A DNA stretch of 64,000 nt from a virus: IMG/VR virus record IMGVR_UViG_3300011005_000151, one strand, 5' to 3'. Each line of letters begins with the position of its first letter. Within the stretch, counting starts at the first letter, position 1. Shown here in pieces: positions 9,037 through 63,676 of the stretch. The translations under genes were made by a program, and so were the position numbers. The notes beneath the pieces are model-generated. The model did not search any database. It saw only the letters and a program-made list of their open reading frames with translations, and was not told the origin of the DNA.

Positions 9037-9681
9037 ATGACGACTGAAACTATGACCATCCATAAGGCTCTGACTGAGCTCAAGACTCTCGATTCCCGCA
9101 TCCTCAACACCATCGTCGGCAACCCGTTCGTGTTTGCCAACAAGCACTCGAACACCAAGGTTTCCGGCGTGGATATTTCCGACTACTGCGCGGAAATCAA
9201 GTCCGGGTATCAGAAGATCAATGATCTCATCGCCCGGCGGGACGCTATCAAGCGGGCGGTCGTGCTTTCCAACGCGACAACATATGTCGTTATCAACGGT
9301 CAGACATACACTGTCGCTGAGGCGATTGAGCTCAAGAATCATTCTGTCCCCCTGCTTCAGCGGCTTCTCAGCCAGATGAGCGAGGCAAAACGCGCCGCTC
9401 AGAAGCTGGCAGACCGTTCCAACGGCGATGCCCTGGAGGACCGTGCCGACGGGTATGTCCGCGCCATGTTTGGTGACAAGACCGACATGAAGAACATGAG
9501 TGAGGAAATCCGCAAGACCCGCGACGAGTTCATCAAGCAACAGACGGTGGAAATCGTCGATCCCCTCAACGTGACCGAGGAGATGAAGGCGCTTGAGGAG
9601 CGCATCAACGGGTTTATGGTGGAGATCGACTCCGCCCTGTCCGTTTCCAACGCCCTGACAAGCGTGGTAATCGAGTACTGA
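9037..9681 (+). CDS. hypothetical coiled-coil protein
   Basis: 214-aa ORF. AAAGGGAAAA RBS. Confidence 0.55.
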   Translation: MTTETMTIHKALTELKTLDSRILNTIVGNPFVFANKHSNTKVSGVDISDYCAEIKSGYQKINDLIARRDAIKRAVVLSNATTYVVINGQTYTVAEAIELKNHSVPLLQRLLSQMSEAKRAAQKLADRSNGDALEDRADGYVRAMFGDKTDMKNMSEEIRKTRDEFIKQQTVEIVDPLNVTEEMKALEERINGFMVEIDSALSVSNALTSVVIEY

Positions 9682-9817
9682 GTTATCACGCTCGCTGCTA
9701 TGCGAAAACCTCGAACCATATGCCTTCTACGTTTTTGACGTTTCGCAGATGTAAAACTTAATAAAAGCGTCGCAACAAATTGCTATTGGAATACAGCTAA
9801 TACTCTATAAAGCGATT

Positions 9818-9893
9818 TACAGATTAGTCAAATGGATATTGACGCTGGCTAGATAGAGCCGGAAGTCTGGGTTCGAATCCCAGATCTGCAAAT
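9818..9893 (+). tRNA. tRNA-like element or pseudo-tRNA with an 8-nt anticodon loop and no CCA
   Basis: Hand-folded. Acceptor has one mismatch. D-stem GTCA/TGAC. Anticodon stem CTGGC/GCCGG with loop TAGATAGA. T-arm CTGGGTTCGAATCCCAG. Confidence 0.3.
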
Positions 9894-12033: not shown

Positions 12034-12426
12034 ATGGCTAAGATCAAGATTTGCGGGGACGCGGTGGTTGTGACTTCCAGCCTCAAGCTGGAGGACATCA
12101 AGAAGGTCGAGAAGTATCGCCCCGAGGCGCTCTGCCTGAAGGGTGGCGAGGATAACAAGGATATCCTGTTCATCCTTGGCACTACCGCCGGCTTCGGTTC
12201 CATCAACACGATGGGCGCGGCTTTTGGCCGTGAGGCTCGCGACGGCTCCGGCTGTGCGCAGATCACCATGACCACCACGGCGGTCGAGGACGTGGCGGAG
12301 ACTGTCGCCGATGAGCTCGGCGCGGCTCTGGGTTACCTCGGCAAGATGGAGCAGGCTCTGCCCGCTGTGATCGCTGAGATCGACGCGGAGCGTGCCGCTA
12401 TCCTGGCCTCTATTACCGTCGAGTAA
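12034..12426 (+). CDS. hypothetical protein. Its N-terminus MAKIKICGDA recurs as decayed copies at about 1255 and about 6395
   Basis: AAAGGAGGG RBS. Followed by a hairpin. Confidence 0.6.
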   Translation: MAKIKICGDAVVVTSSLKLEDIKKVEKYRPEALCLKGGEDNKDILFILGTTAGFGSINTMGAAFGREARDGSGCAQITMTTTAVEDVAETVADELGAALGYLGKMEQALPAVIAEIDAERAAILASITVE

Positions 12427-12825: not shown

Positions 12826-12854
12826 CCCGCCGGGTTTATCCCGGCGGGTTTTAT
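12826..12854 (+). terminator. CCCGCCGGG-tttat-CCCGGCGGG followed by TTTTAT
   Basis: TTTAT-loop family. Directly 5' of tRNA-Leu. Confidence 0.65.
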
Positions 12855-12856
12855 AT

Positions 12857-12942
12857 GCCGGTGTGACGGAATCGGAAGACGTACCAGACTTAAAATCTGC
12901 TGAGCTTTGCTCGTGAGGGTTCAAATCCCTTCGCCGGCACCA
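12857..12942 (+). tRNA. tRNA-Leu (anticodon TAA), type II with long variable arm
   Basis: Acceptor GCCGGTG/CGCCGGC, anticodon loop CTTAAAA, long variable arm, T-arm GGGTTCAAATCCC, CCA encoded. D and anticodon stems are imperfect. Confidence 0.7.
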
Positions 12943-12971: not shown

Positions 12972-14462
12972 TTGTTCAACACAGTTATCAGACAGACGCC
13001 ATTCACCACCGAGGGTGCGGATGAGTTTTTCCCGAACATAACGGGAGGCGTAAGAAACGGCGACGTATCGTGGCTTGCAACGGTTCGCGCCGTCATCGGT
13101 CATCGGAAACCGGCGGATGAAAGCATCAATATCCGGTTCGGTGAATCGCGGTTCACAGCGGAAGATATCTCCGGGTTTTCTCCGGAGAGGGTCATGCAGT
13201 CCTGCCTCTGCAGTTACCAAATGGCGAGCGAGAACACGCTTTACATCCATGGTTTGGTATGCCTGAAGCGTGACGACAACAATGCGAATTTCGAGGTTTT
13301 CCAGAATCATTTCCTGTCTGCGTACCCCGGATGGTATCAGATGGAGCCGGTCACCGCGATGTTCCGCAGAACGTTCAACATCCTGTGCTTCGTCAACGCG
13401 GAGCTTCACAGCACGATCCTGATTATCGCCAGTCTGAATAATAAGTATCTGCACTATGCTCAGGCCGGTGTCACGGCGTATTTCCCCTGGTATTACAAGC
13501 GCGGCACGGATACTGTCTCGCAGGAGGAGCTTGACCTTCTTCAGTCTTTCAGCAAAAGGGAACCGGATGATTTTTACGCGGCTATCCGCAAGCTGGCGGA
13601 GGGGCACGATTTCGAGTCGGCGAGGATCCGAAGGCTTCTCAGCGGGTTTGAGAGCCAGTATGAGAAGGAGCAACTCTCCAGCTTGCAACTGGAAATCGAG
13701 AGATACCATAACGAGATCCGGGAATTGAATGACAGGATCGCGGCGTATTACCAGACCATCAATGAGAGAAGTATCACAGCTCTTGGTCTGGAAGCGAAGA
13801 TCGCCCAGGGAGGCGAGGACTCCGAGATCATGAACTACGTTCTTCAGAACAAGGAAATCGATCTTGTCAGTGTCGATGAAGACCGCATGAAGTTTATCGT
13901 TCGTACTCATCTGGCGTGGTGGGACGAGGATATGGCGCGGCGGTATATCGAAAATCACGATGGTTTCGTGTATTCGTTCCTGACAGAGCTGTCTGCGGAG
14001 CAGATGGAGAAGTTGATGAAGGCAGTTTTCCTGGATCAGAAGATCAAGGTTCGGTTCTGCGCGGCTTACGAGTTCCGCATCAGCGGGAATGTCCGCGCAA
14101 CAGGCGGGTATGACTTTGGCGGAGAGTATAACACCTACATGCCAAATCCCCATATCGACCAGTACAGCTGCATGGGCGGTTATGAGCGGAAAATCAACCG
14201 TTTCCTGGAGTCTCGTGATTATATCGGGGCTTTGGAACAGACCTGTGCGTCTGCCAGAAGCCTGAACTGGGGCGACAGCACGGTTATGCGCCAGTTCTTC
14301 CGGACGGTGTGTCACTACGGTGATAATCGCGTGAATAACAAGGCGTTTGAGCTTCCCGACGGCACCGTCGTTGACCCGAAGGGTGCGGTCGAGTGGCTGG
14401 AAAAGGAGGAAGCCGCAGGTGAGTCATCGGAAACGCAGGAAGGAGCGACGGAAAATGTCTAA
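12972..14462 (+). CDS. 496-aa protein of unknown function, first gene of the JAB/E1 operon. The C-terminal region has a YMPNPHIDQYSC motif reminiscent of the E2 HPN-Cys signature
   Basis: AAAGGAGG RBS with TTG start. Its stop overlaps the JAB start (ATGTCTAA). The antisense ORF 12921..14315 is judged spurious. Confidence 0.6.
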   Translation: MFNTVIRQTPFTTEGADEFFPNITGGVRNGDVSWLATVRAVIGHRKPADESINIRFGESRFTAEDISGFSPERVMQSCLCSYQMASENTLYIHGLVCLKRDDNNANFEVFQNHFLSAYPGWYQMEPVTAMFRRTFNILCFVNAELHSTILIIASLNNKYLHYAQAGVTAYFPWYYKRGTDTVSQEELDLLQSFSKREPDDFYAAIRKLAEGHDFESARIRRLLSGFESQYEKEQLSSLQLEIERYHNEIRELNDRIAAYYQTINERSITALGLEAKIAQGGEDSEIMNYVLQNKEIDLVSVDEDRMKFIVRTHLAWWDEDMARRYIENHDGFVYSFLTELSAEQMEKLMKAVFLDQKIKVRFCAAYEFRISGNVRATGGYDFGGEYNTYMPNPHIDQYSCMGGYERKINRFLESRDYIGALEQTCASARSLNWGDSTVMRQFFRTVCHYGDNRVNNKAFELPDGTVVDPKGAVEWLEKEEAAGESSETQEGATENV

Positions 14463-15399
14463 GATCATTCGTTTGACGCCAGATCTGATTAATCAGGCAA
14501 GGCAGGAATTCGAGGAAGCCTTGACGAACGGCAAGTTCGCCGACGGGAAAATCGAGTTTAAGAAAACCTTCAGCCACGTCGACCGCAAGGCCACAGTGGT
14601 TTTCTCGGAAAAGGCGTGGATCAAGCAGGATATGCTGGTATCCAAGTTCCCGAAGGAGATCGCCTGGCATGGTCTTGCGTATCGCGGCGAGGACGATACA
14701 TATATCATCGAGGATATCATGGTTTATCCGCAGGTCGTCACCGGCGGCGATGTGGAAACCGACCAGGTCGAGTACCAGACCTGGCTTTACGCCCACGATG
14801 ACAAGACGTTTGCCAGCATCCGGTATCAGGGGCACAGCCATGTGACCATGGGTGTTACGCCGTCCGCCGTGGACCGAAGATGGTATCAGGAGATCATCGA
14901 CCAGCTCGGTGAGGATATGTTTTATATCTTCATGATTTGGAACAAGCGCGGGGAAAAGACCATCATGATTTACGACATGCTGAAGAACTGCCTGTTCGAG
15001 ACGGCGGATGTGGATGTGAAGGTCGCGCCCGGCGAGCTTGGGCTTTTGGAATTCCTGTCCGATGCCAAGGACAAAGTAAAGGAAAAGGCTCCGGCATACA
15101 ACTACGGCAACTACGGCGGTTACGGCACTGGGTATAAACCGCAGACACAAACCACGCCGGCACAGCCGCAGGCCAATAAAACAGCTCCTGCTACGACCAC
15201 GGGGGCGACGCCTACTACCAAGGAGACGAAGCCGGAATCCGAGACAAAGGCGACGAGCCCAGCCCCGGCGCTTCCGTCCGGAACAAAGCCGAGAATCGGT
15301 GCAGGATGGTGCGGTCGCCGGTATCTCGACGACTACGGTTACGAGGACGAGGACGAGGACGATCCTTACGACTACTACTATCACAGGGGAGGTAAATGA
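14455..15399 (+). CDS. JAB/MPN (JAMM) metalloprotease-domain protein with a Tyr/Gly-rich low-complexity C-terminal tail
   Basis: HSHVTMGVTPSAVD matches HxHx7Sx2D exactly, with an upstream Glu. GGAAGGAG RBS. Translationally coupled to both neighbours. Confidence 0.75.
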   Translation: MSKIIRLTPDLINQARQEFEEALTNGKFADGKIEFKKTFSHVDRKATVVFSEKAWIKQDMLVSKFPKEIAWHGLAYRGEDDTYIIEDIMVYPQVVTGGDVETDQVEYQTWLYAHDDKTFASIRYQGHSHVTMGVTPSAVDRRWYQEIIDQLGEDMFYIFMIWNKRGEKTIMIYDMLKNCLFETADVDVKVAPGELGLLEFLSDAKDKVKEKAPAYNYGNYGGYGTGYKPQTQTTPAQPQANKTAPATTTGATPTTKETKPESETKATSPAPALPSGTKPRIGAGWCGRRYLDDYGYEDEDEDDPYDYYYHRGGK

Positions 15400-16070
15400 T
15401 GGATCTTTCCAAGAGTCTTGAGTATTTCAACCCCGATGAGGTCCGCGACCGTGTCCATATCATTGGATGCGGTTCGGTCGGGTCTACCGTGGCGGAAAAT
15501 CTTGTCCGCTGCGGTGTGACGAAGATCACGCTTTGGGATTTCGATTATGTCGAGCCCCATAATATCGCCAACCAGATGTTCCGCCGTCAGGATATCGGGA
15601 AACTCAAGGTTGAGGCTTTGGCTGATATCCTCCGGGAAATCAACGACGAGGTTGACGAGGATCTCATCCTTGAGCCGAAGGGGTGGCATGGCAAACTGCT
15701 CTCCGGGCACATCTTCCTGTGTGTGGACAGCATCGAGCTTCGGCGGGAAATCGTGGAAAAGCACTACGATTCCATGTTCGTAAAAGCGATGTTTGATTTC
15801 CGCACCCGGCTGGAGGATGCACAGCATTACGCCTGTGACTGGTCGGATGAGTCGGCCAAGGAAAATTTCCTCAAGACCATGCAGTTCAGTCATGAGGAAG
15901 CCAAAGAGGAAACTCCGGTTTCTGCCTGCAATGTAACGCTGGGTGTCTGCCAGACTGTGCGGATCATCTGCGGGTATGGCACGGCGAACTTCATGAACTT
16001 CATCAACGGTCGCGGTCTGAAAAAGATCGTGCTCGCCGATGCGTTCCATATGGTTTTGGACGCATTCTGA
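15396..16070 (+). CDS. minimal E1-like (ThiF/MoeB family) adenylyltransferase-domain protein
   Basis: IIGCGSVGS Rossmann loop, DFDYVEPHNIANQ, and a CNVTLGV ThiF-like motif. ATGA overlap with the JAB gene. Confidence 0.75.
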   Translation: MMDLSKSLEYFNPDEVRDRVHIIGCGSVGSTVAENLVRCGVTKITLWDFDYVEPHNIANQMFRRQDIGKLKVEALADILREINDEVDEDLILEPKGWHGKLLSGHIFLCVDSIELRREIVEKHYDSMFVKAMFDFRTRLEDAQHYACDWSDESAKENFLKTMQFSHEEAKEETPVSACNVTLGVCQTVRIICGYGTANFMNFINGRGLKKIVLADAFHMVLDAF

Positions 16071-16151
16071 TATCAACAGCGGTTTTCGGGGCCCGCGTAA
16101 AACCCCGAGCATGACTGTAAAGAATAATCGTTTGTTTTTCACAAACGGCCT

Positions 16152-16169
16152 CCTGCTGTCAGCGAGAGG
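16152..16169. repeat. CCTGCTGTCAGCGAGAGG element, copy A, upstream of the reverse transcriptase
   Basis: Identical core at four loci. Contains the GCTG-T-CAGC palindrome. Confidence 0.6.
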
Positions 16170-16522
16170 ATCGAAAAGGTAGGATGAAGATTCTGGGTAA
16201 CGGCCGCCTACAGAGCCGGCACGCGTCGTCATCGCGGCAGCCGTCGGTTCGGGTGCGCCGGAACCCAGGAGTTAAGCCCCGTGCTATATCACAAAACCCT
16301 CTCTTCGTCAAGAGGAATTCACACTTTTTCTGTCGAAATTGTTATCACATCACACACTTTTGCGCAGCTTCATCTACCGTAAATAACATTTGGTCGCATC
16401 TACAAAGATCGCCACAGGCATCGTTCACCTCGAACTCGGGATCAAAACCCAGTTCCGGAGGAGGTCCTGAAGACCGAAGTACCATGAGTTTACAGTCATT
16501 ACCTTATTGGAAAGGAGGATTT

Positions 16523-17665
16523 ATGGTTTACATAACAGTACGTCAGCCTCCGCAGTATCACCAGATCACGCTGGAAGAGCTTTTGTTTTCAGCAGACAAA
16601 TTCTCTGGAGGACTGATAAGCAATAACGAAACGAACACACGTACTTATACGGTATTCAGACCGAGCCCGCAGCTTCTGATGCATTTGGGTGTCGGGAAAA
16701 TGATACGGCGTCTTCATCAGTTCAACGAGAGCACCAAGGAGCTTCGGGGGCAGCCGCGCCAGTCGTTGTATCACACATTTTACATTCCGAAAAAGACAAG
16801 GGGTTTGCGCCGGATCGACGCGCCATGTGATGAACTTATGGATTCTCTCCGGTCTTTGAAGCGGATGTTTGAAAATGAGTTTGGCGCTCTGTATCATACG
16901 TCGGCTTTTGCCTATGTCAAAAAGCGTTCGACAAAAGACGCGGTCATTCGGCACCAGCAGAACGAATCCAAATGGTTTGCCAAGCTTGACCTGTCGAACT
17001 TCTTCGGAAGTACAACACTGGATTTCACGATGCGGATGCTAGGCATGATTTATCCCTTTTCTGAGATCTGCCGGAATCCATACGGGTATAAAGAACTGGA
17101 AAAGGCTGTCGAACTTGGGTTTCTGAACGGCGGTCTGCCGCAGGGAACACCGCTGTCCCCGACGCTTACCAATATCATTATGATCCCGTTCGATTACACG
17201 CTCAACAAGCGGCTTCGCAGTATGGATCAGCGGTATATCGAGACACGATATGCGGATGACTTCGCGTTTTCCTGCCGGTACGCATTCAATGTAAAGGATA
17301 TTGAGAACGTTGTGCAGGGGGTTATTCGAGAGTTCGACGCCCCGTATGTTCTGAATACAGAGAAGACAAAGTACGGTTCCAGTGCCGGGTCGAATTGGCT
17401 GTTCGGCATGATCCTCAACGCGGATAATCAGATCACCGTCGGAGCGAAGAACAAGCGGCAGTTTAAGGCCATGCTCACATCCTACGCCCTCGACAGAAAG
17501 GGTGGCGTCGAGTGGGACAAGCACGATATCCAGGTTTTGGCCGGACTTCGGAACTACTATCGCATGGTCGAGGAAAAGGAAATCGACGATATCGTTACAA
17601 AGATCGGCGGGAAATTCGGGGTCAATATCCCGAGACTTATCCATGACGATCTGAAAGCAGCATAA
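16523..17665 (+). CDS. stand-alone reverse transcriptase (retron or group-II-like; QGxxxSP and YADD motifs)
   Basis: RT motifs IPKKTRGLRRI, LDLSNFF, LPQGTPLSP and RYADDFAF. GGAAAGGAGGA RBS. About 440 nt of structured non-coding leader lies upstream. Confidence 0.85.
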   Translation: MVYITVRQPPQYHQITLEELLFSADKFSGGLISNNETNTRTYTVFRPSPQLLMHLGVGKMIRRLHQFNESTKELRGQPRQSLYHTFYIPKKTRGLRRIDAPCDELMDSLRSLKRMFENEFGALYHTSAFAYVKKRSTKDAVIRHQQNESKWFAKLDLSNFFGSTTLDFTMRMLGMIYPFSEICRNPYGYKELEKAVELGFLNGGLPQGTPLSPTLTNIIMIPFDYTLNKRLRSMDQRYIETRYADDFAFSCRYAFNVKDIENVVQGVIREFDAPYVLNTEKTKYGSSAGSNWLFGMILNADNQITVGAKNKRQFKAMLTSYALDRKGGVEWDKHDIQVLAGLRNYYRMVEEKEIDDIVTKIGGKFGVNIPRLIHDDLKAA

Positions 17666-17713
17666 GAAATCATTAAATCAATTCCCGTGATGCATAGCTA
17701 TTTACATAGCACC

Positions 17714-17729
17714 CCTGCTGTCAGCGAGG
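17714..17729. repeat. CCTGCTGTCAGCGAGG element, copy B, downstream of the reverse transcriptase
   Basis: Same core as copy A. Confidence 0.6.
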
Positions 17730-18172
17730 GTTACGAAAAGTCAGATCAACGAAGGCAGGCGGATACGAGTCGATCGCAGGTTATCCAGTTGAGCTGGGCT
17801 CGCAAGTTGACGACAAGAGACATCAACCAGTAAGAACCACTCGGATAAATATTGAAAAGTCCAGATGCATCAACATTTTATATGTCGAAAAGTTATGGGT
17901 TTTTTTTCGACACATCCGACCCTTGGCCGATGTCGTAATGAAACTAACTTTGCAAGCTTACAGCAGCCGGCGCCTTCAGTATCCAGGTAGACATTACCAT
18001 AGATCACGGGAATTTTATAGCGGCGTAGCACAAATGGTCAGTGTATTGGACTTTGACTCCAACGATGACGGTCCGAGTCCGTCCGCCGCCGCCAGCTCTC
18101 TTTGAGAGCGTGTTCTCCTTTCGTAAGGGGCGGCTTTCCCGCCGCCCCGTCTCTTAACATGGAGGTATAGAG

Positions 18173-18736
18173 ATGACAAGAACAGAATTTCGGGAAGAAA
18201 TAAACTCATGGGACGAGCTGATTACTTTCTGTAACGACGCAGGACTCAATGCCTGCGAGGATGTATACGACGATGGCGCGTATGACGATATGGTCGAGGA
18301 GGATATCAGCGAACGTGACTGGGGCTGGGAGCGTCTTCGAGATTGCCTGAGCGATCTGCCGGAAAGTCGGTGGAATGAATTCTATTACCGCGACGGATGG
18401 CTCGATTATCGTGTGCTCGATGAAGACGATTTTGATGCATGGAAATCCAGCGCCGAAGACGAGATGGATAACTGGGGTGGGTTCGACGAAGAGGATGAAG
18501 ACGAGGATGAAGAGGGAGAAGAAGTTGAGGAGGAAGAAGCGCCGGTCGAGGACGAAGACGAGATCGACGAGAACTTTGACCCTTCACAGATCTTCGATGG
18601 ATGCCAGTCGATCTTCCAGCGAATCGACCAGGACACGCAACACAAGCGTTTGGAAGAGCTTTCCGCACAGCAGAAAGAGGAACGTGCGGAAGTAGAGGCT
18701 TTTGAGGTAAGTCTTTCCGGCATCGTATTGGTATAA
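18173..18736 (+). CDS. highly acidic 187-aa protein, candidate DNA mimic or anti-restriction protein
   Basis: Asp/Glu runs (EDEDEDEEGEEVEEEE). A hairpin precedes it. Flanked by repeat copies B and C. Confidence 0.5.
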   Translation: MTRTEFREEINSWDELITFCNDAGLNACEDVYDDGAYDDMVEEDISERDWGWERLRDCLSDLPESRWNEFYYRDGWLDYRVLDEDDFDAWKSSAEDEMDNWGGFDEEDEDEDEEGEEVEEEEAPVEDEDEIDENFDPSQIFDGCQSIFQRIDQDTQHKRLEELSAQQKEERAEVEAFEVSLSGIVLV

Positions 18737-18744
18737 GCCGGGTT

Positions 18745-18822
18745 TGACATAACTGTGTTATGCAGATGGGGATGTGTTCCAAGCATACATAATCCCGCCC
18801 CTGCTGTCAGCGAGGGTAACGT
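18745..18822. repeat. long form of the repeat element (about 80 nt), copy C
   Basis: AACTGTGTTATGcAGATGgGGAT...ATACATAATCCCGCCCCTGCTGTCAGCGAGGGTAA aligns with copy D over about 75 nt. Confidence 0.6.
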
Positions 18823-18973
18823 TTTGTCGGCTACGTCGTAAAGTTTTGTTTTCTCATATTTATTGAATTTAATTACATAGAAATTCAATAAATACTCGAA
18901 AGGCAAAACTTGTACGCCGACGCTCTTAGCATATCACCCCACTCAATTTGCCAGGTGATATAGATAACACAGC

Positions 18974-27571: not shown

Positions 27572-27739
27572 AATGCCGTTGAAGATTGAACGAGATCTTG
27601 AGTTCTTGGATTCTCTCATCCAGAAAGCTGTAGAGAAAAAGTGCGAGATCCATATCGAAATCACACCGGAAAACGAGACAATCACAATCAGTCCATGGGA
27701 GGCGTTCAGCTACATGTGCCCGTATAGGAGAGAGGCATG
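27572..27739 (+). CDS. small hypothetical protein (55 aa)
   Basis: AAGGAGCGG RBS. Overlaps the pnkp-like start by ATGA. Confidence 0.3.
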
Positions 27740-29974
27740 AGAGTCCTTCTTCTTCTGAGAGGCGCACCGGGCTGCGGTAAATCCACATGGATCGAACAAA
27801 ATGGGCTTTCCAAGTACACATTATCCTCAGATGATATCCGCATGATGTGTAATAGCCCTGTTCTGACAGTCAGCGGGAAGCCAGCGATCAACGTATCGAG
27901 CGACCAGGTTGTGTGGGATACGCTGTTCCGTCTTTTGGAAGTACGTATGAAGAACGGCGCTTTCACGGTAATCGACGCCACAAATTCCAAGACGATCGAA
28001 ATGAAGCGGTACAAGGATTTGTGCGACTCTTACAGGTACCGTATCTACTGCGTCGACTTCACCAACATCCCGATCGAACAGTGTAAACAGCAGAATCTGC
28101 AGCGTCCAGAGCTCAAGCAAGTACCGGAAGAATCAATCGACCGAATGTATGCGCGGTTCGCTACACAGAAAATCCCGTCTGGGATTACGGTCGTCAAGCC
28201 GGACGAACTCGACAAGATCTGGATGAAAAAGATCGACCTGTCTTCTTATAAAATGATCCATCATATTGGAGATATCCATGGGTGTTATACAGCTCTATCA
28301 GAGTATTTCGATAGAGAAGGCGGGCTGAAGGATGACGAGTTCTACATCTTCTGCGGCGATTATATCGACCGTGGGATTGAAAACGTGGAAGTTATTAACT
28401 TCCTACTTGGGATTTATGACCGTCCGAACGTCCTGCTTTTAGAGGGGAATCACGAACGATGGCTTTGGATTTATGGTAACGATGCTGTCGCGAAATCCAA
28501 GGAGTTTGAACTCATAACCAAAACGCAGTTTGAAAACGCCCGCGTCAGTAAGAAGGAAATGCGTAAGTTCTACCGGAGGCTATGTCAGTGTGCATATTAC
28601 ACCTACGGGGATAAGACAGTTCTGGTGACTCACGCCGGTTTGAGCACACTTCCTGAGAATTTGACGCTCGTTTCAACATACCAGATGATTCACGGAGTCG
28701 GGAACTACAACGATTTCGAGGCGGTCGCCAACAACTTCGCACTTAACACACCGGCGGATACATATCAGATCCACGGCCATAGAAATACAAAACGTCTGCC
28801 AACTCAGGTGAATGAACGGGTATTCAATCTTGAAGGCCGGGTCGAGTTCGGCGGTGAGCTTCGTGCAGTTCAGCTTTCTCCGGACGGATTCCGTACTGTG
28901 GAAATCCAGAATACGGTTTTTCAGATGCCGGAGGCTCAGGAGCCGGAGGAAAAGAAGGAAGAGAAGAAGACGGTTGCTGACATGATCCTTGAACTTCGTA
29001 ATAACAGATACGTCCAGGAGAAACGTTACGGCGATATTTCTTCATTTAACTTTACTAAGGGCGCGTTCTACGACAAGGTTTGGGATGCGCAGACGATGAA
29101 AGCTCGCGGGCTTTACATCGATATCCCAAAGGCGAAAATCGTAGCGCGGGCTTATAACAAATTTTTCAACATCAACGAGCGTCCTGAGACGAAGCTCGAT
29201 ATGTTGGAGTACAAACTGGCGTTCCCTGTCACAGCGTATGTGAAAGAGAACGGTTTTCTCGGTTTGGTCAGCTACGACGAAGCGAACGACGGGCTTTTCA
29301 TCACAACAAAGTCTTCTCCGGATGGAGATTACGCCGTCTGGCTGCGCGGGAATTTTGAGGTCTATCTCCCGAGTATCCGTGAGAAAATCAAGCAGTACCT
29401 AAAAGAGAACGACGTAACTATGGTTTTCGAGTGCGTGGATATGGTTCACGACCCGCACATTATTGAGTACCCGACGAACCGTCTCTACCTGCTTGACATT
29501 ATCAAGAACGACATGACCTGTACGAAGATGGAGTACAGCGAGCTCTGTGAAGTAGCCAAGTCTTTCGGACTCCGCTGCAAGGAACAGGCGTTTGTGTTGA
29601 GCGATTGGCAGGAGTTCTTCGATTGGTATTACGAAGTCACCGATGAAGATTATCTGTACAACGGCAGGTACATCGAAGGATTTGTGATCGAAGACATCGA
29701 AGGATATATGGTTAAGCTCAAACTAGCGTACTACAACTTCTGGAAATTCATGCGTGGAATCGCGCACGAGACACTCCGGAAAGGGCATATCGACGGGAAG
29801 AGAACATCTGCTCTGACGACAGCGCTCGCCAATAACTTCTATGGTTGGGTTCGCCAACTCTATGAACACACGGAAGACCCGGATACGCTACCGCGAGATA
29901 TTTGCACCCTGCGTAGGATGTTCTTCGAGGAGAATGATCGAGTACCGGATATTTGGAGTGCCCGAGCGTATTGA
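27737..29974 (+). CDS. pnkp: Pnkp-like trifunctional RNA end-healing and sealing enzyme (P-loop kinase, calcineurin-type phosphoesterase, ligase-like nucleotidyltransferase)
   Basis: Walker A GAPGCGKST. Metallophosphatase motifs GDIHGC, GDYIDRG and GNHE. C-terminal KENG (KxNG) nucleotidyltransferase motif. Confidence 0.75.
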   Translation: MRVLLLLRGAPGCGKSTWIEQNGLSKYTLSSDDIRMMCNSPVLTVSGKPAINVSSDQVVWDTLFRLLEVRMKNGAFTVIDATNSKTIEMKRYKDLCDSYRYRIYCVDFTNIPIEQCKQQNLQRPELKQVPEESIDRMYARFATQKIPSGITVVKPDELDKIWMKKIDLSSYKMIHHIGDIHGCYTALSEYFDREGGLKDDEFYIFCGDYIDRGIENVEVINFLLGIYDRPNVLLLEGNHERWLWIYGNDAVAKSKEFELITKTQFENARVSKKEMRKFYRRLCQCAYYTYGDKTVLVTHAGLSTLPENLTLVSTYQMIHGVGNYNDFEAVANNFALNTPADTYQIHGHRNTKRLPTQVNERVFNLEGRVEFGGELRAVQLSPDGFRTVEIQNTVFQMPEAQEPEEKKEEKKTVADMILELRNNRYVQEKRYGDISSFNFTKGAFYDKVWDAQTMKARGLYIDIPKAKIVARAYNKFFNINERPETKLDMLEYKLAFPVTAYVKENGFLGLVSYDEANDGLFITTKSSPDGDYAVWLRGNFEVYLPSIREKIKQYLKENDVTMVFECVDMVHDPHIIEYPTNRLYLLDIIKNDMTCTKMEYSELCEVAKSFGLRCKEQAFVLSDWQEFFDWYYEVTDEDYLYNGRYIEGFVIEDIEGYMVKLKLAYYNFWKFMRGIAHETLRKGHIDGKRTSALTTALANNFYGWVRQLYEHTEDPDTLPRDICTLRRMFFEENDRVPDIWSARAY

Positions 29975-30630: not shown

Positions 30631-30712
30631 TACATAACCAACTGTGTTATGAAGATGAGGATCAACAAGAATACATATTGGATCCCGCTCCTGCTGTCAG
30701 CGAGAGTAATGG
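30630..30712. repeat. long form of the repeat element, copy D
   Basis: Aligns with copy C over about 75 nt, including CCTGCTGTCAGCGAGAG. Confidence 0.6.
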
Positions 30713-30872
30713 AAAGGTAAGACCTGGAAGGAATTTTTTCGCTCGCTCTGCGAGCGAGCAAATACGAGGGCTCACGAGGGCTTTTCCGGCATATGCCTTG
30801 AAGAAAAGTCCAGTAAGTACTTTTCTACGGCATACGGATAACACAGTTTAATTTTAGAGCGGAGGTGTGCAT

Positions 30873-62527: not shown

Positions 62528-63676
62528 TTAATTATTATTCATAGCCATAGAAACTGGCGGGAAAAGTTGATTATACAGTGCTCGCATATTACATACGGTA
62601 TGATATGCGTTGAAATTTTTCGCGTAAGACTTCCAGCTTTGCCATGAATGATATACGTCTTCATATGTCATTAGGCCGTCATCTACTTTTTTCCTGAAGG
62701 ATTTGAGCTTGCGGCGCATCTTTGTCACAGACCGCTTATAGATTCTTTTTACAACCTTACCGGAAGATGTAAGGCTGAATCTGACTTTCAAATAAGTGAA
62801 GACGTTCGACAGTTTCAAAATATGAGTCTTCTTTTTGTTTAACGTAATTCTGAGTTTGTCGCATAGCTCTGCGATTCTCTCAAGGCAGTAGTTTAAATAT
62901 TTCTTGTCATAGTGTATCAGGTAGCCATCATCCATATAGCGGCCATAATACTTGATTCTTAGTTTTTCTTTGATGTAGTGATCCAACTCGTTCGCGGAAG
63001 CGAGCGATAATACCTGACTAATCTGGCTCCCCAGACCAAGTCCAATATCTCCGAAAGCTTCGACAAAGTGTATGATAATCCATCGTATCTCTTCGTTGTC
63101 GTATGTCTTGTCGATAATTTTCTTTAACACATCATGTGAAACGCGCTCAAAAAATTTGCTGAAATCAAACAGGAGAATGTATCCATCGTTACCATATTTC
63201 CTGTAATACTTACGCAAGTGAGTTGCCATTCTTCTGATAGCAAATGAATAGCCTTTGCCTTGTATTGACGCACCATTATCGTATATAAATGATCTGGTGA
63301 TAGCTGGGACGAGAGAGTAGTCACACAAACATCTTTGCACGACGCGTTCTCTGACTGTGACGCTTTGTATATATCTCTTTTTCCCGCGCTCTGTAATATA
63401 GAAACTGAAAAACTTATCGTGTGTGAATGTTCGGCTTGATAAACGCGTATAGTTTTGATATACTTCCATTGGCGCTCTGGATTTATATTTTTGAATACTC
63501 GCTTTCCATCCTACATTCCGAACGCATTTCTTATATGCATCATATAAATGTGTATACGTAAATACTTCATCATAATTATCGCATGACTGCATAAATTGTT
63601 TTTTCTTATTTTCCCGAAAGGCTTTCCGCCGTTGATATCTGATTTCATGTCTCTCAGAGCTTGTGATTTTAATCAC
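62528..63676 (-). CDS. DGR-type reverse transcriptase
   Basis: LGSQISQ ([LI]GxxxSQ) instead of QGxxxSP, RYMDDGYL, LLFDFSKFF. An adjacent AAC-rich repeat is present. Confidence 0.75.
   Translation of the reverse strand: MIKITSSERHEIRYQRRKAFRENKKKQFMQSCDNYDEVFTYTHLYDAYKKCVRNVGWKASIQKYKSRAPMEVYQNYTRLSSRTFTHDKFFSFYITERGKKRYIQSVTVRERVVQRCLCDYSLVPAITRSFIYDNGASIQGKGYSFAIRRMATHLRKYYRKYGNDGYILLFDFSKFFERVSHDVLKKIIDKTYDNEEIRWIIIHFVEAFGDIGLGLGSQISQVLSLASANELDHYIKEKLRIKYYGRYMDDGYLIHYDKKYLNYCLERIAELCDKLRITLNKKKTHILKLSNVFTYLKVRFSLTSSGKVVKRIYKRSVTKMRRKLKSFRKKVDDGLMTYEDVYHSWQSWKSYAKNFNAYHTVCNMRALYNQLFPPVSMAMNNN

Follow-up and report, generated by a model that had tools for sequence, protein, structure and literature searches.

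Prokaryotic conjugation of ubiquitin-like proteins (Ubls) has so far been described as a weapon that hosts direct against phages, as in the Bil and type II CBASS (cyclic-oligonucleotide-based antiphage signalling system) operons and probably in Bub. Could a virus carry a complete-looking pathway of this kind on its own side? The question is raised by a stretch of 64,000 nucleotides from a virus (IMG/VR record IMGVR_UViG_3300011005_000151; hereafter the window), in which positions 12972-16070 hold three plus-strand open reading frames (ORFs) for proteins of 496, 314 and 224 aa. We refer to these proteins as X496 (or X for the family), JAB and E1. Directly upstream lie genes for a 93-aa protein, which we describe below as the Ubl, and for a small protein that we call p130, while a reverse transcriptase (RT) gene follows downstream. 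We conclude that the locus probably encodes a self-contained phage system for conjugating and removing a Ubl, consisting of the Ubl itself, a minimal E1, a new E2-like enzyme and a JAMM protease.

Three overlapping genes encode an E1-type enzyme, a JAMM protease and a candidate E2

The 224-aa protein matches Pfam ThiF (E = 1.6e-21), and a search of its profile against the PDB sequences recovered a range of E1-type enzymes from Uba1 (7.5e-16) to Cap2 (~1e-9), including Uba5, MoeB, TcdA, MccB (5e-12) and PaaA (3e-10), with all of these matches covering just its first ~120 residues. No other protein of the locus is as well conserved (57-75% identity among 24 homologues), and the GCGxxG motif, D48, D50, N56, N59-Q60, K71, D111 and R116 are all invariant, as is Cys178. 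Scores against curated NCBIfam families were all far below their cut-offs, the best being that for the ThiF family PRK08644 (78 versus 159 bits; 6e-22), with further matches to 6A-MBL cap2_3 (1e-19) and thiF_fam2 (1e-16). The PADLOC E1-E2 model also matched (8e-18), limited to the Rossmann part at residues 17-87, and the score against PRTRC_ThiF (TIGR03736) was 27.8 bits for a cut-off of 144.75, which places the protein outside the PRTRC family. CxxC zinc motifs and rhodanese, CYS and UFD domains are all absent from the homologue alignment. Judged by these motifs, the third ORF is predicted to be a minimal single-domain E1/ThiF-type adenylation domain with the residues of its ATP/Mg site intact.

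The 314-aa protein carries an exact JAMM site (H127-S-H129-x7-S137-x2-D140), and the site residues H127, H129, S137 and D140 are invariant in 31 homologues, together with the upstream E68. Its family profile aligns with Rpn11 over all active-site motifs as well as a shared (Y/M)PQxxTG stretch (YPQxVTG; E = 0.22), while its matches to the PADLOC JAB model (2.7e-3) and to Pfam Prok-JAB (0.03, in 3 of the 31 members) are weak. The MPN domain occupies approximately residues 1-200 and is followed by a low-complexity tail that passes from Tyr/Gly-rich to Lys-rich and then to an acidic-aromatic DDxDPY...(F/Y)G(Y) ending; this kind of pattern is kept across the family, with the Tyr/Gly-rich part present in most aligned homologues. 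We accept the protein as a predicted active JAMM/MPN+ peptidase.

For X496, searches of Pfam (also member by member), NCBIfam, PADLOC and PHROGs returned coiled-coil noise alone, its profile found nothing among the PDB sequences, and a Foldseek search of its model against the PDB also found nothing (best E = 0.4). The family is large, with 2,319 clusters at 50% identity at E-values up to 1e-3, 1,031 of which are below 1e-30. The AlphaFold model of X496 is confident, with a predicted local distance difference test score (pLDDT) of 88.6, and shows an N-terminal alpha/beta domain (residues 1-225), then a helix of 54 residues (226-279) and last the C-terminal domain (~283-482). In the latter, a helix, two strands, a helical insert and two further strands are followed by a P391-N392-P-H394 loop, a short helix, C400 and three helices. 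This element order is that of the UBC/E2 core, and the modelled domain appears UBC/RWD-like; the RWD domains listed for it are those of Knl1, Spc24/25, Kre28, Listerin, Mtc5 and C21orf6. The loop and the cysteine lie within YMPNPHIDQYSC, where P391, N392, H394 and C400 are all invariant in 34 close homologues. When nine divergent members, among them one with an X at 25% identity, are added (43 sequences), N392 is replaced by Q in L073 and P391 by A in L072, and the invariant polar residues are H394, C400, S427, S430 and N432 in the C-terminal domain plus D31 and R39. The spacing of 8 between N392 and C400 equals the distance from Asn77 of the HPN motif to Cys85 in UbcH5. An hhalign comparison of the C-terminal domain with five E2 sequences was not significant (probability 0.2%), although its best local alignment is in register and pairs PN with HPN and C400 with the catalytic cysteine. 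Taking the model and the conserved residues together, we lean towards an E2-like C-terminal domain in which C400 is catalytic. The N-terminal domain and the long helix, a candidate coiled coil, would then serve target choice or oligomerisation. An H93/C139/H161 triad or zinc site was also considered for the N-terminal domain and was rejected, as it is not conserved once the divergent members are added.

The X and JAB genes overlap by ATGTCTAA at 14455-14462, where the JAB ATG lies within the TAA end of X, and the JAB and E1 genes overlap by ATGA at 15396-15399, where the E1 ATG sits on the TGA end of JAB. A good Shine-Dalgarno sequence precedes both the JAB and E1 starts. We take the TTG codon as the true start of X496 because the resulting MF N-terminus is common to 34 homologues and an AAGGAGG ribosome-binding site lies 8 nt upstream. 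The original prediction, which was made from the sequence alone, had described the three genes as one unit coupled by their overlaps and had pointed out the exact JAMM motif HxHx7Sx2D, a Tyr/Gly-rich tail at the end of the JAB protein, the E1 Rossmann and ThiF motifs and a Pro-Asn-x7-Cys segment in the first protein; all of these are borne out by the alignments and overlaps described above.

The proposed modifier is a beta-grasp protein with a conserved C-terminal tail that ends in alanine

A direct search with the 93-aa protein found only itself. A 75-aa ORF occupies the same position in at least 64 of 72 related loci, nearly all of these ORFs ending in ...NVVKADNA, and a profile search identified 2,092 homologues. 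With the homologue alignment, AlphaFold modelled the 93-aa protein as a confident beta-grasp fold (pLDDT 83; predicted template modelling score 0.78) with its last five residues disordered; the window copy contains a ~15-aa insertion that adds a small beta-hairpin. Nothing was found when the profile was compared with the PDB sequences, and the protein was recognised by fold search alone, for which the top structural matches were SUMO and ubiquitin, not ThiS or MoaD. For this protein the beta-grasp check proposed in the original prediction had a positive outcome, and the fold and its flexible conserved tail indicate that the 93-aa protein is the likely modifier.

The tail itself is uniform. It reads ...AVAKADNA-V in the window, and 103 of 120 database homologues stop exactly at K-(A/Q)-D-N-A. 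The other 17 continue for another 1-8 residues that are not conserved (A, AA, K, TC or HPLSAVKA); in the related loci the additions are A, R or AA, the window has V, and the annotated phage MT835544.1 has LAA. There is no GG terminus and no Gly among the last 10 residues, whereas the D-N-A end is invariant. By analogy with ubiquitin precursors, this pattern suggests an E1 substrate that is sometimes made in precursor form. In Bil and Bub operons, experiments with Ubl and Ubl-fusion precursors have shown that the JAB enzyme exposes the reactive Ubl C-terminus (PMC10557695, PMC11601596). The original prediction was right that no Ubl with a GG end is present, but a Ubl is encoded all the same, and it had been missed because a GG ending was sought. 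Similarly, its suggestion that the substrate might be one of the small upstream proteins has to be divided between two genes: the 93-aa protein appears to be the modifier itself, while p130 stays a candidate target.

p130 is directly 5' of the Ubl gene in 67 of the 72 loci and has no match in Pfam, PHROGs or the PDB, nor to E2 and X domains. In three phages p130 is fused in frame behind the Ubl, once each in L065 and L066 and twice in L058, where the two tandem fusions are accompanied by a free Ubl copy ending in KADNAAA. The fusion junctions read ...VVKADNA|AYIKIAG... and ...VQKADNA|AEIKTTG.... Free p130 begins with M-A-K, so that after removal of the Met it would have the same N-terminal Ala as is found at the fusion junction, and the DNA|A junction would mimic a linear conjugate of the Ubl to an N-terminal Ala. 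Duplication is also seen. In L001, L002 and L003, the opening stretch of the p130-Ubl pair (at least 300 nt) occurs on either side of X-JAB-E1-RT at 99% identity, and the p130 and Ubl proteins are identical between both copies; the repeats of L001 (9017-9316 and 17166-17465) are 8,149 bp apart and bracket tRNA-X-JAB-E1-RT. Such a repeat could raise gene dosage or allow the enzyme cassette to be lost by recombination. Because p130 is adjacent to the Ubl, is duplicated with it and is sometimes fused behind it, we tentatively name it as the leading candidate for a partner or target of the Ubl, and phage or host proteins are equally possible as targets.

The gene block is conserved across a clade of phages

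The related loci comprise 68 IMG/VR contigs found with the X496 profile (7-137 kb, most of them 55-137 kb) and four found by exact-protein look-ups. By tblastn, all 72 contain X, JAB and E1 and 71 contain RT, the one exception being a locus truncated by a contig end; p130 is found in 67 and p195, a 195-aa protein encoded upstream, in 61. The gene order p195-p130-Ubl-X-JAB-E1-RT is constant, X and JAB overlap or abut in nearly all loci, and X, JAB and E1 are separate ORFs in every locus including the window, the Ubl-p130 fusion being the sole fusion seen. As the block recurs in all 72 related loci, its arrangement goes beyond chance. The only match in the annotated phage collection is MT835544.1 from human faeces, which carries all six genes although its X protein is just 25% identical. 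Among 185,579 species-representative genomes, the X family occurs on contigs of metagenome-assembled genomes (MAGs) alone, mostly assigned to Oscillospiraceae, Acutalibacteraceae and Ruminococcus; these contigs look like the same phages, and no non-phage context was found in that collection. The block had originally been placed in an accessory island, a view that, within this clade, is contradicted by its retention in the 72 loci and in MT835544.1.

The limits of the clade can be traced with p214, a 214-aa protein encoded upstream of the module (9037-9681, plus strand). Phages whose p214 is at least 59% identical carry the module, and those at 49% or less are without the module within 10 kb. 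Hence the module is core to one phage clade and absent or lost in more distant relatives. p214 matches PHROG 1491, "tail fiber protein" (E = 3e-51), an annotation that looks doubtful because the gene lies among early-type genes and tRNAs. One related phage, L163, has at positions 1-2024 a p130-like gene, a Ubl ending in AKQDNA and a truncated X-like ORF, with no JAB or E1 within 19 kb, and looks like a decayed module.

Gene layout separates the modifier from the enzymes

As listed in Table 1, the p130-Ubl pair is closed by a strong intrinsic terminator, which lies just upstream of a tRNA gene and the enzyme genes. The p130 and Ubl genes each have a strong ribosome-binding site; the start of p130, which had been listed as a 132-aa ORF with a TTG start, was reassigned to an ATG. 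The tRNA-Leu(UAA) gene is found in the same position in 16 of 24 related loci scanned (among them L005, L006, L007, L020, L029, L049, L051, L053, L056, L059, L062, L063, L068, L070 and L072), in addition to the window. Its position between the Ubl terminator and X suggests that tRNA processing may create the 5' end of the enzyme mRNA. Because the Ubl and p130 have a unit of their own and are subject to duplication and fusion, we suggest that the phage needs more of the modifier and of p130 than of the enzymes, and about as much of the one as of the other.

Table 1. Positions of the module genes, motifs and neighbouring elements, in the window unless another locus is named
Feature	Position	Strand	Remarks
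p130	12034-12426	+	True start ATG 12034 (MAKIK...); AAGGAGG ribosome-binding site and ATG; homologues start MAK
Ubl, beta-grasp, 93 aa	12526-12807	+	Family norm 75 aa
Strong intrinsic terminator	12826-12852	+	9-bp all-GC hairpin, then TTTT (hairpin and T-run 12826-12848); closes p130-Ubl unit
tRNA-Leu(UAA)	12857-12942	+	ARAGORN and Rfam; ~30 nt 5' of X start codon
X496 ORF	12972-14462	+	TTG start; 496 aa
PNPHIDQYSC, proposed E2-like active-site loop	14142-14171	+	Residues 391-400, within YMPNPHIDQYSC
JAB/JAMM ORF	14455-15399	+	314 aa
JAMM zinc-site motif HSHVTMGVTPSAVD	14833-14874	+	Within JAB gene
E1/ThiF ORF	15396-16070	+	224 aa
Retron-like RT, YADD	16524-17665	+	True start ATG 16524; conserved neighbour
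R1 two-hairpin motif copies	16111-16183, 17681-17745, 18751-18831, 30640-30717	+	Intergenic
Acidic protein, 187 aa, Asp/Glu runs	18173-18736	+	Homologue between JAB and E1 in ~20 related loci
Ubl-p130 fusion gene, L065	6444-7082		In-frame
Ubl-p130 fusion gene, L066	6425-7063		In-frame
Ubl-p130 fusion genes, L058	8104-8736 and 8848-9480		In-frame

The surroundings are those of a phage genome segment. The window has six tRNA genes and, downstream of the module, genes for a DNA polymerase, helicase, primase, NrdD, a Pnkp/RNA-ligase fusion and integrases. The module lies within a few kb of the tRNA genes, and the replication genes and the tRNA-repair enzyme follow 15-35 kb downstream in the same 64-kb segment. 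Because of this position near tRNA genes, a retron-like RT, a tRNA-repair enzyme and replication genes, there is a hint that the module acts in an early or middle phase and not in the virion.

A proposed conjugation cycle and the points that weigh against it

What we observe are the parts, the catalytic residues they carry and a precursor pattern in the Ubl tail, and from these we infer each chemical step of the following scheme. The Ubl and p130 would be made in excess from their own unit ending in a terminator, as the layout of genes and terminator suggests. Where the Ubl has extra residues or is fused to p130, the JAMM protease would cut after K-A-D-N-A, a step proposed from the conservation of this sequence and by analogy with BilC and BubCD. 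The E1, which we propose to be of the homodimer type, has the residues needed to adenylate a Ubl, and the acceptor would be the C-terminal Ala. The Ubl would then be passed on as a thioester, perhaps via C178 of the E1, to C400 of X496 and ligated to an amine of the target, and the JAMM protease could reverse the ligation. In its most far-reaching form the proposal combines an E1 that activates Ala, an E2 family that has gone unrecognised and an obligatory tagging of p130 or of host or phage proteins during an infection step, a combination that we regard as possible but doubtful. Such a role could lie, for instance, in host takeover, in counter-defence against host Bil or CBASS-type conjugation or in assembly; the counter-defence or particle-modifying role envisaged at the outset is pure speculation.

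Several observations speak against a conjugation system. To our knowledge, the reactive C-terminal residue is Gly in every Ubl pathway of the literature searched and in the classical pathways, and a reactive Ala would be unprecedented. The E1 is just 224 aa long, has no mobile Cys domain and has a C-terminal half that matches nothing. The related phage L163, whose p214 is 38% identical, has retained p130 and the Ubl next to its truncated X but has neither JAB nor E1. Lastly, an extra C-terminal Ala on the Ubl of Bil blocks ATP binding (PMC10557695).

Alternative functions of the module

The alternative that fares best, though we think it improbable, is that the beta-grasp protein is a sulfur carrier of the ThiS/MoaD/CysO/TtuB type, converted to a thiocarboxylate after adenylation by the E1 and feeding the thio-modification of tRNAs, DNA or a cofactor, with a JAMM enzyme acting like Mec+ or QbsD. 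Operons that combine an E1, a JAB protein and a beta-grasp protein for sulfur transfer are known (PMC1779556), the best curated matches of the E1 are the small ThiF/MoeB enzymes PRK08644 and thiF_fam2, the phage is rich in tRNAs, and the related L001 has radical-SAM-like and PAPS-reductase-like genes (weak or faint matches) some 8-10 kb away. However, the scores against the curated ThiF/MoeB families all lie far below their cut-offs, and the Ubl structurally resembles SUMO and ubiquitin instead of ThiS or MoaD. The original prediction had itself named a sulfur-carrier pathway as the contrary outcome, which is not what we find: the Ubl has no GG terminus, the E1 has neither CxxC zinc motifs nor a rhodanese domain, and tblastn with the L001 radical-SAM-like and PAPS-reductase-like genes found none in the 64-kb window (ThiG/MoaE/CysM/TtuA-type acceptors were not directly searched). 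The Ubl-p130 fusions and variable extensions better fit a protein modifier, and the gene for a large conserved Cys/His protein of E2-like topology is tightly coupled to that for JAB.

Slightly less credible is a system for processing only, in which p130 carries the Ubl as a removable N-terminal fusion or chaperone tag and the JAMM protease matures it, the E1 and X496 act elsewhere and no conjugation takes place. Fusions of ubiquitin to ribosomal proteins and the lambda TAPI/TAPK pair provide likenesses. The Ubl-p130 fusions do exist, the evidence for an E2 is weak, and pairs of Ubl and JAB genes without an E1 occur in the tail-assembly clusters of phages (PMC1779556). Against this, the Ubl and p130 are separate in most of the phages, where the Ubl already ends in Ala and needs no processing; the E1, which is always present, is better conserved than any other protein of the locus and has invariant catalytic residues; and the strictly kept flexible C-terminal tail is a hallmark of an E1 substrate.

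The least likely of these readings is a ligation or nucleotidylation that does not involve protein targets, with the E1 acting like MccB or PaaA or with the Asn-Ala end of the Ubl being coupled to a small molecule or a nucleic acid, perhaps the RT product, since the MccB and PaaA matches of the E1, the conserved Asn beside the Ubl terminus and the constant RT neighbour that would favour it are offset by matches no better than those to Uba or MoeB, by the absence of a peptide-clamp domain from the 224-aa E1, by the nature of MccB substrates (short Asn-ended peptides, not folded Ala-ended beta-grasp proteins) and by the variable spacer between E1 and RT, which hints at a separate unit and whose sole conserved RNA element is a multi-copy intergenic motif.

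Comparison with known prokaryotic Ubl systems

Returning to a phage-borne conjugation system, we compared its parts with those of the known pathways. The module resembles Bil (BilABCD) in having separate genes for a Ubl, an E2 (here a candidate), JAB and E1 and no E3, as well as in the pre-processing by JAB that we infer here. It differs in that BilA ends in an invariant Gly and the module Ubl in an invariant Ala; BilB is a stand-alone E2 of ~130-160 aa, whereas the candidate of the module is the C-terminal third of a 496-aa protein without sequence similarity to BilB; and Bil is a host defence, whereas the module is phage-borne. The E1 architecture that defines Bil (PMC11601596) is also absent, as the module E1 is one 224-aa domain. 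Bub Type I, with its BubAB Ubl-E2 fusion, is similar in having an N-terminal Ubl fusion that needs JAB cleavage and an E1 without a mobile Cys domain (PMC11601596). On the other hand, there is no Ubl-E2, JAB-E1 or E2-E1 fusion in the module, and no BubE serine protease: DUF6527 was not matched in a Pfam search of nine nearby genes and a PHROGs search of a similar set, a few small ORFs being left out. Bub forms Tyr/Ser oxyesters without a catalytic Cys, whereas C400 of X and C178 of the E1 are invariant in the module; the partner fused to the module Ubl, p130, shows no similarity to E2, and the Bub terminus is Gly rather than Ala.

Type II CBASS (Cap2/Cap3) shares with the module only the Rossmann core of the E1 and a weak similarity of JAB to the PADLOC JAB models. 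PADLOC found no CD-NTase or effector, and the E2-E1 fusion that marks type II CBASS is absent; furthermore, the modifier of the module is a dedicated beta-grasp protein and not a signalling enzyme. Small beta-grasp proteins paired with a minimal single-domain E1 of the bacterial type, with or without a JAMM protease, are likewise found in ThiS/ThiF, MoaD/MoeB, CysO/Mec+, TtuB/TtuC and SAMP/UbaA/JAMM, from which the module differs by its lack of GG, CxxC and rhodanese, by having no identified acceptor and by its extra conserved E2-like protein. SAMP and TtuB are minimal systems that conjugate proteins without an E2. The sole phage-borne pair of Ubl and JAB in the literature searched is TAPI (Ubl) and TAPK (JAB plus NlpC/P60) of lambda and T1 (PMC1779556), which has no E1 and belongs to the tail gene cluster, unlike the module, which lies among tRNA genes, has the replication genes 20-30 kb downstream and includes an E1 and an E2-like protein. 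No phage-encoded system of E1, E2, JAB and Ubl was found in the literature searched, which is not proof of absence. Thus, the architecture of bacterial Ubl conjugation (Bil, Bub or CBASS) that the original prediction saw in the locus fits as a list of parts, but the arrangements that define each of these types are not there, and we file the module outside Bil, Bub, type II CBASS and the sulfur-carrier systems as a phage-borne form of prokaryotic Ubl conjugation.

The phages concerned form a very large uncultivated clade from gut and other animal-associated metagenomes and are binned mostly with MAGs of Clostridia. If the module is active, bacterial viruses, like eukaryotic ones, would use ubiquitin-like tagging of their own, E1 chemistry would for the first time extend to a C-terminus other than glycine, a new E2-like family without a Pfam model would be added, and the natural Ubl-fusion precursors would make the JAMM cleavage site directly testable. 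The parts are small and soluble-looking, and reconstitution in E. coli is feasible.

The neighbouring RT and other features of these phages

The RT reported beside the module in the original prediction is indeed there. It matches RVT_1 (8e-16), retron St85 (3e-49) and PADLOC RT_II-A (4e-44), its 167.8 bits against retron St85 lying below the cut-off of 235 and placing it outside that family as defined, and an Rfam scan found no retron-type noncoding RNA family next to it. RT is also present in L073, which encodes a divergent X. The RT and the Ubl system may form one functional unit. The variable spacer between E1 and RT and the motif it contains give no sign that the two genes are expressed together and hint at a separate unit. 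A diversity-generating retroelement was considered for this RT and rejected, as the 64-kb window has no repeat of the template/variable (TR/VR) type. The spacer motif, which we call R1, is a ~69-nt two-hairpin element of the form ...CUGUAAUG..AUUUAUCUC-UUU-GAGAUAGCUUCUUGCUGUUAGCGGAAGUAACAACUUGAG, with compensatory changes at 11 of its 15 base pairs; it lacks a U-tract and is absent from Rfam. It has 110 matches in 43 loci, four of them in the window, all intergenic and on the plus strand, and besides the E1-RT spacer it follows RT and several unrelated genes, with L030 offering examples at 13954-14021, 15420-15485 and 15681-15748. Because R1 is a multi-copy intergenic element, we rejected it as a retron-like noncoding RNA or template specific to this RT; it could be a processing site or regulatory element. 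A second RT at 62528-63676 on the minus strand (phrog_1423, E = 4e-86) may belong to a diversity-generating retroelement, although the window showed no TR/VR pair.

The acidic 187-aa protein encoded downstream of RT in the window may be linked to the module, where it could act by mimicking DNA or by docking with the basic/acidic tail of JAB. The 745-aa Pnkp/RNA-ligase fusion (27737-29974, plus strand; phrog_8238, E = 2e-221) is of the tRNA-repair type and would fit a phage that acts against the anticodon nucleases of its host. ARAGORN also reported a tRNA of undetermined identity with a four-base anticodon (gata) at 9817-9892 on the plus strand, and similar oddities are found in L052 and L065. 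Finally, these phages harbour orphan RAGATH motifs: RAGATH-36 and RAGATH-16 RNAs score above the Rfam gathering score in L070 (7542-7705 and 3800-3872), L001 (801-946) and L030 (3705-3777), and the window has a weak RAGATH-27-like match at 9691-9773.

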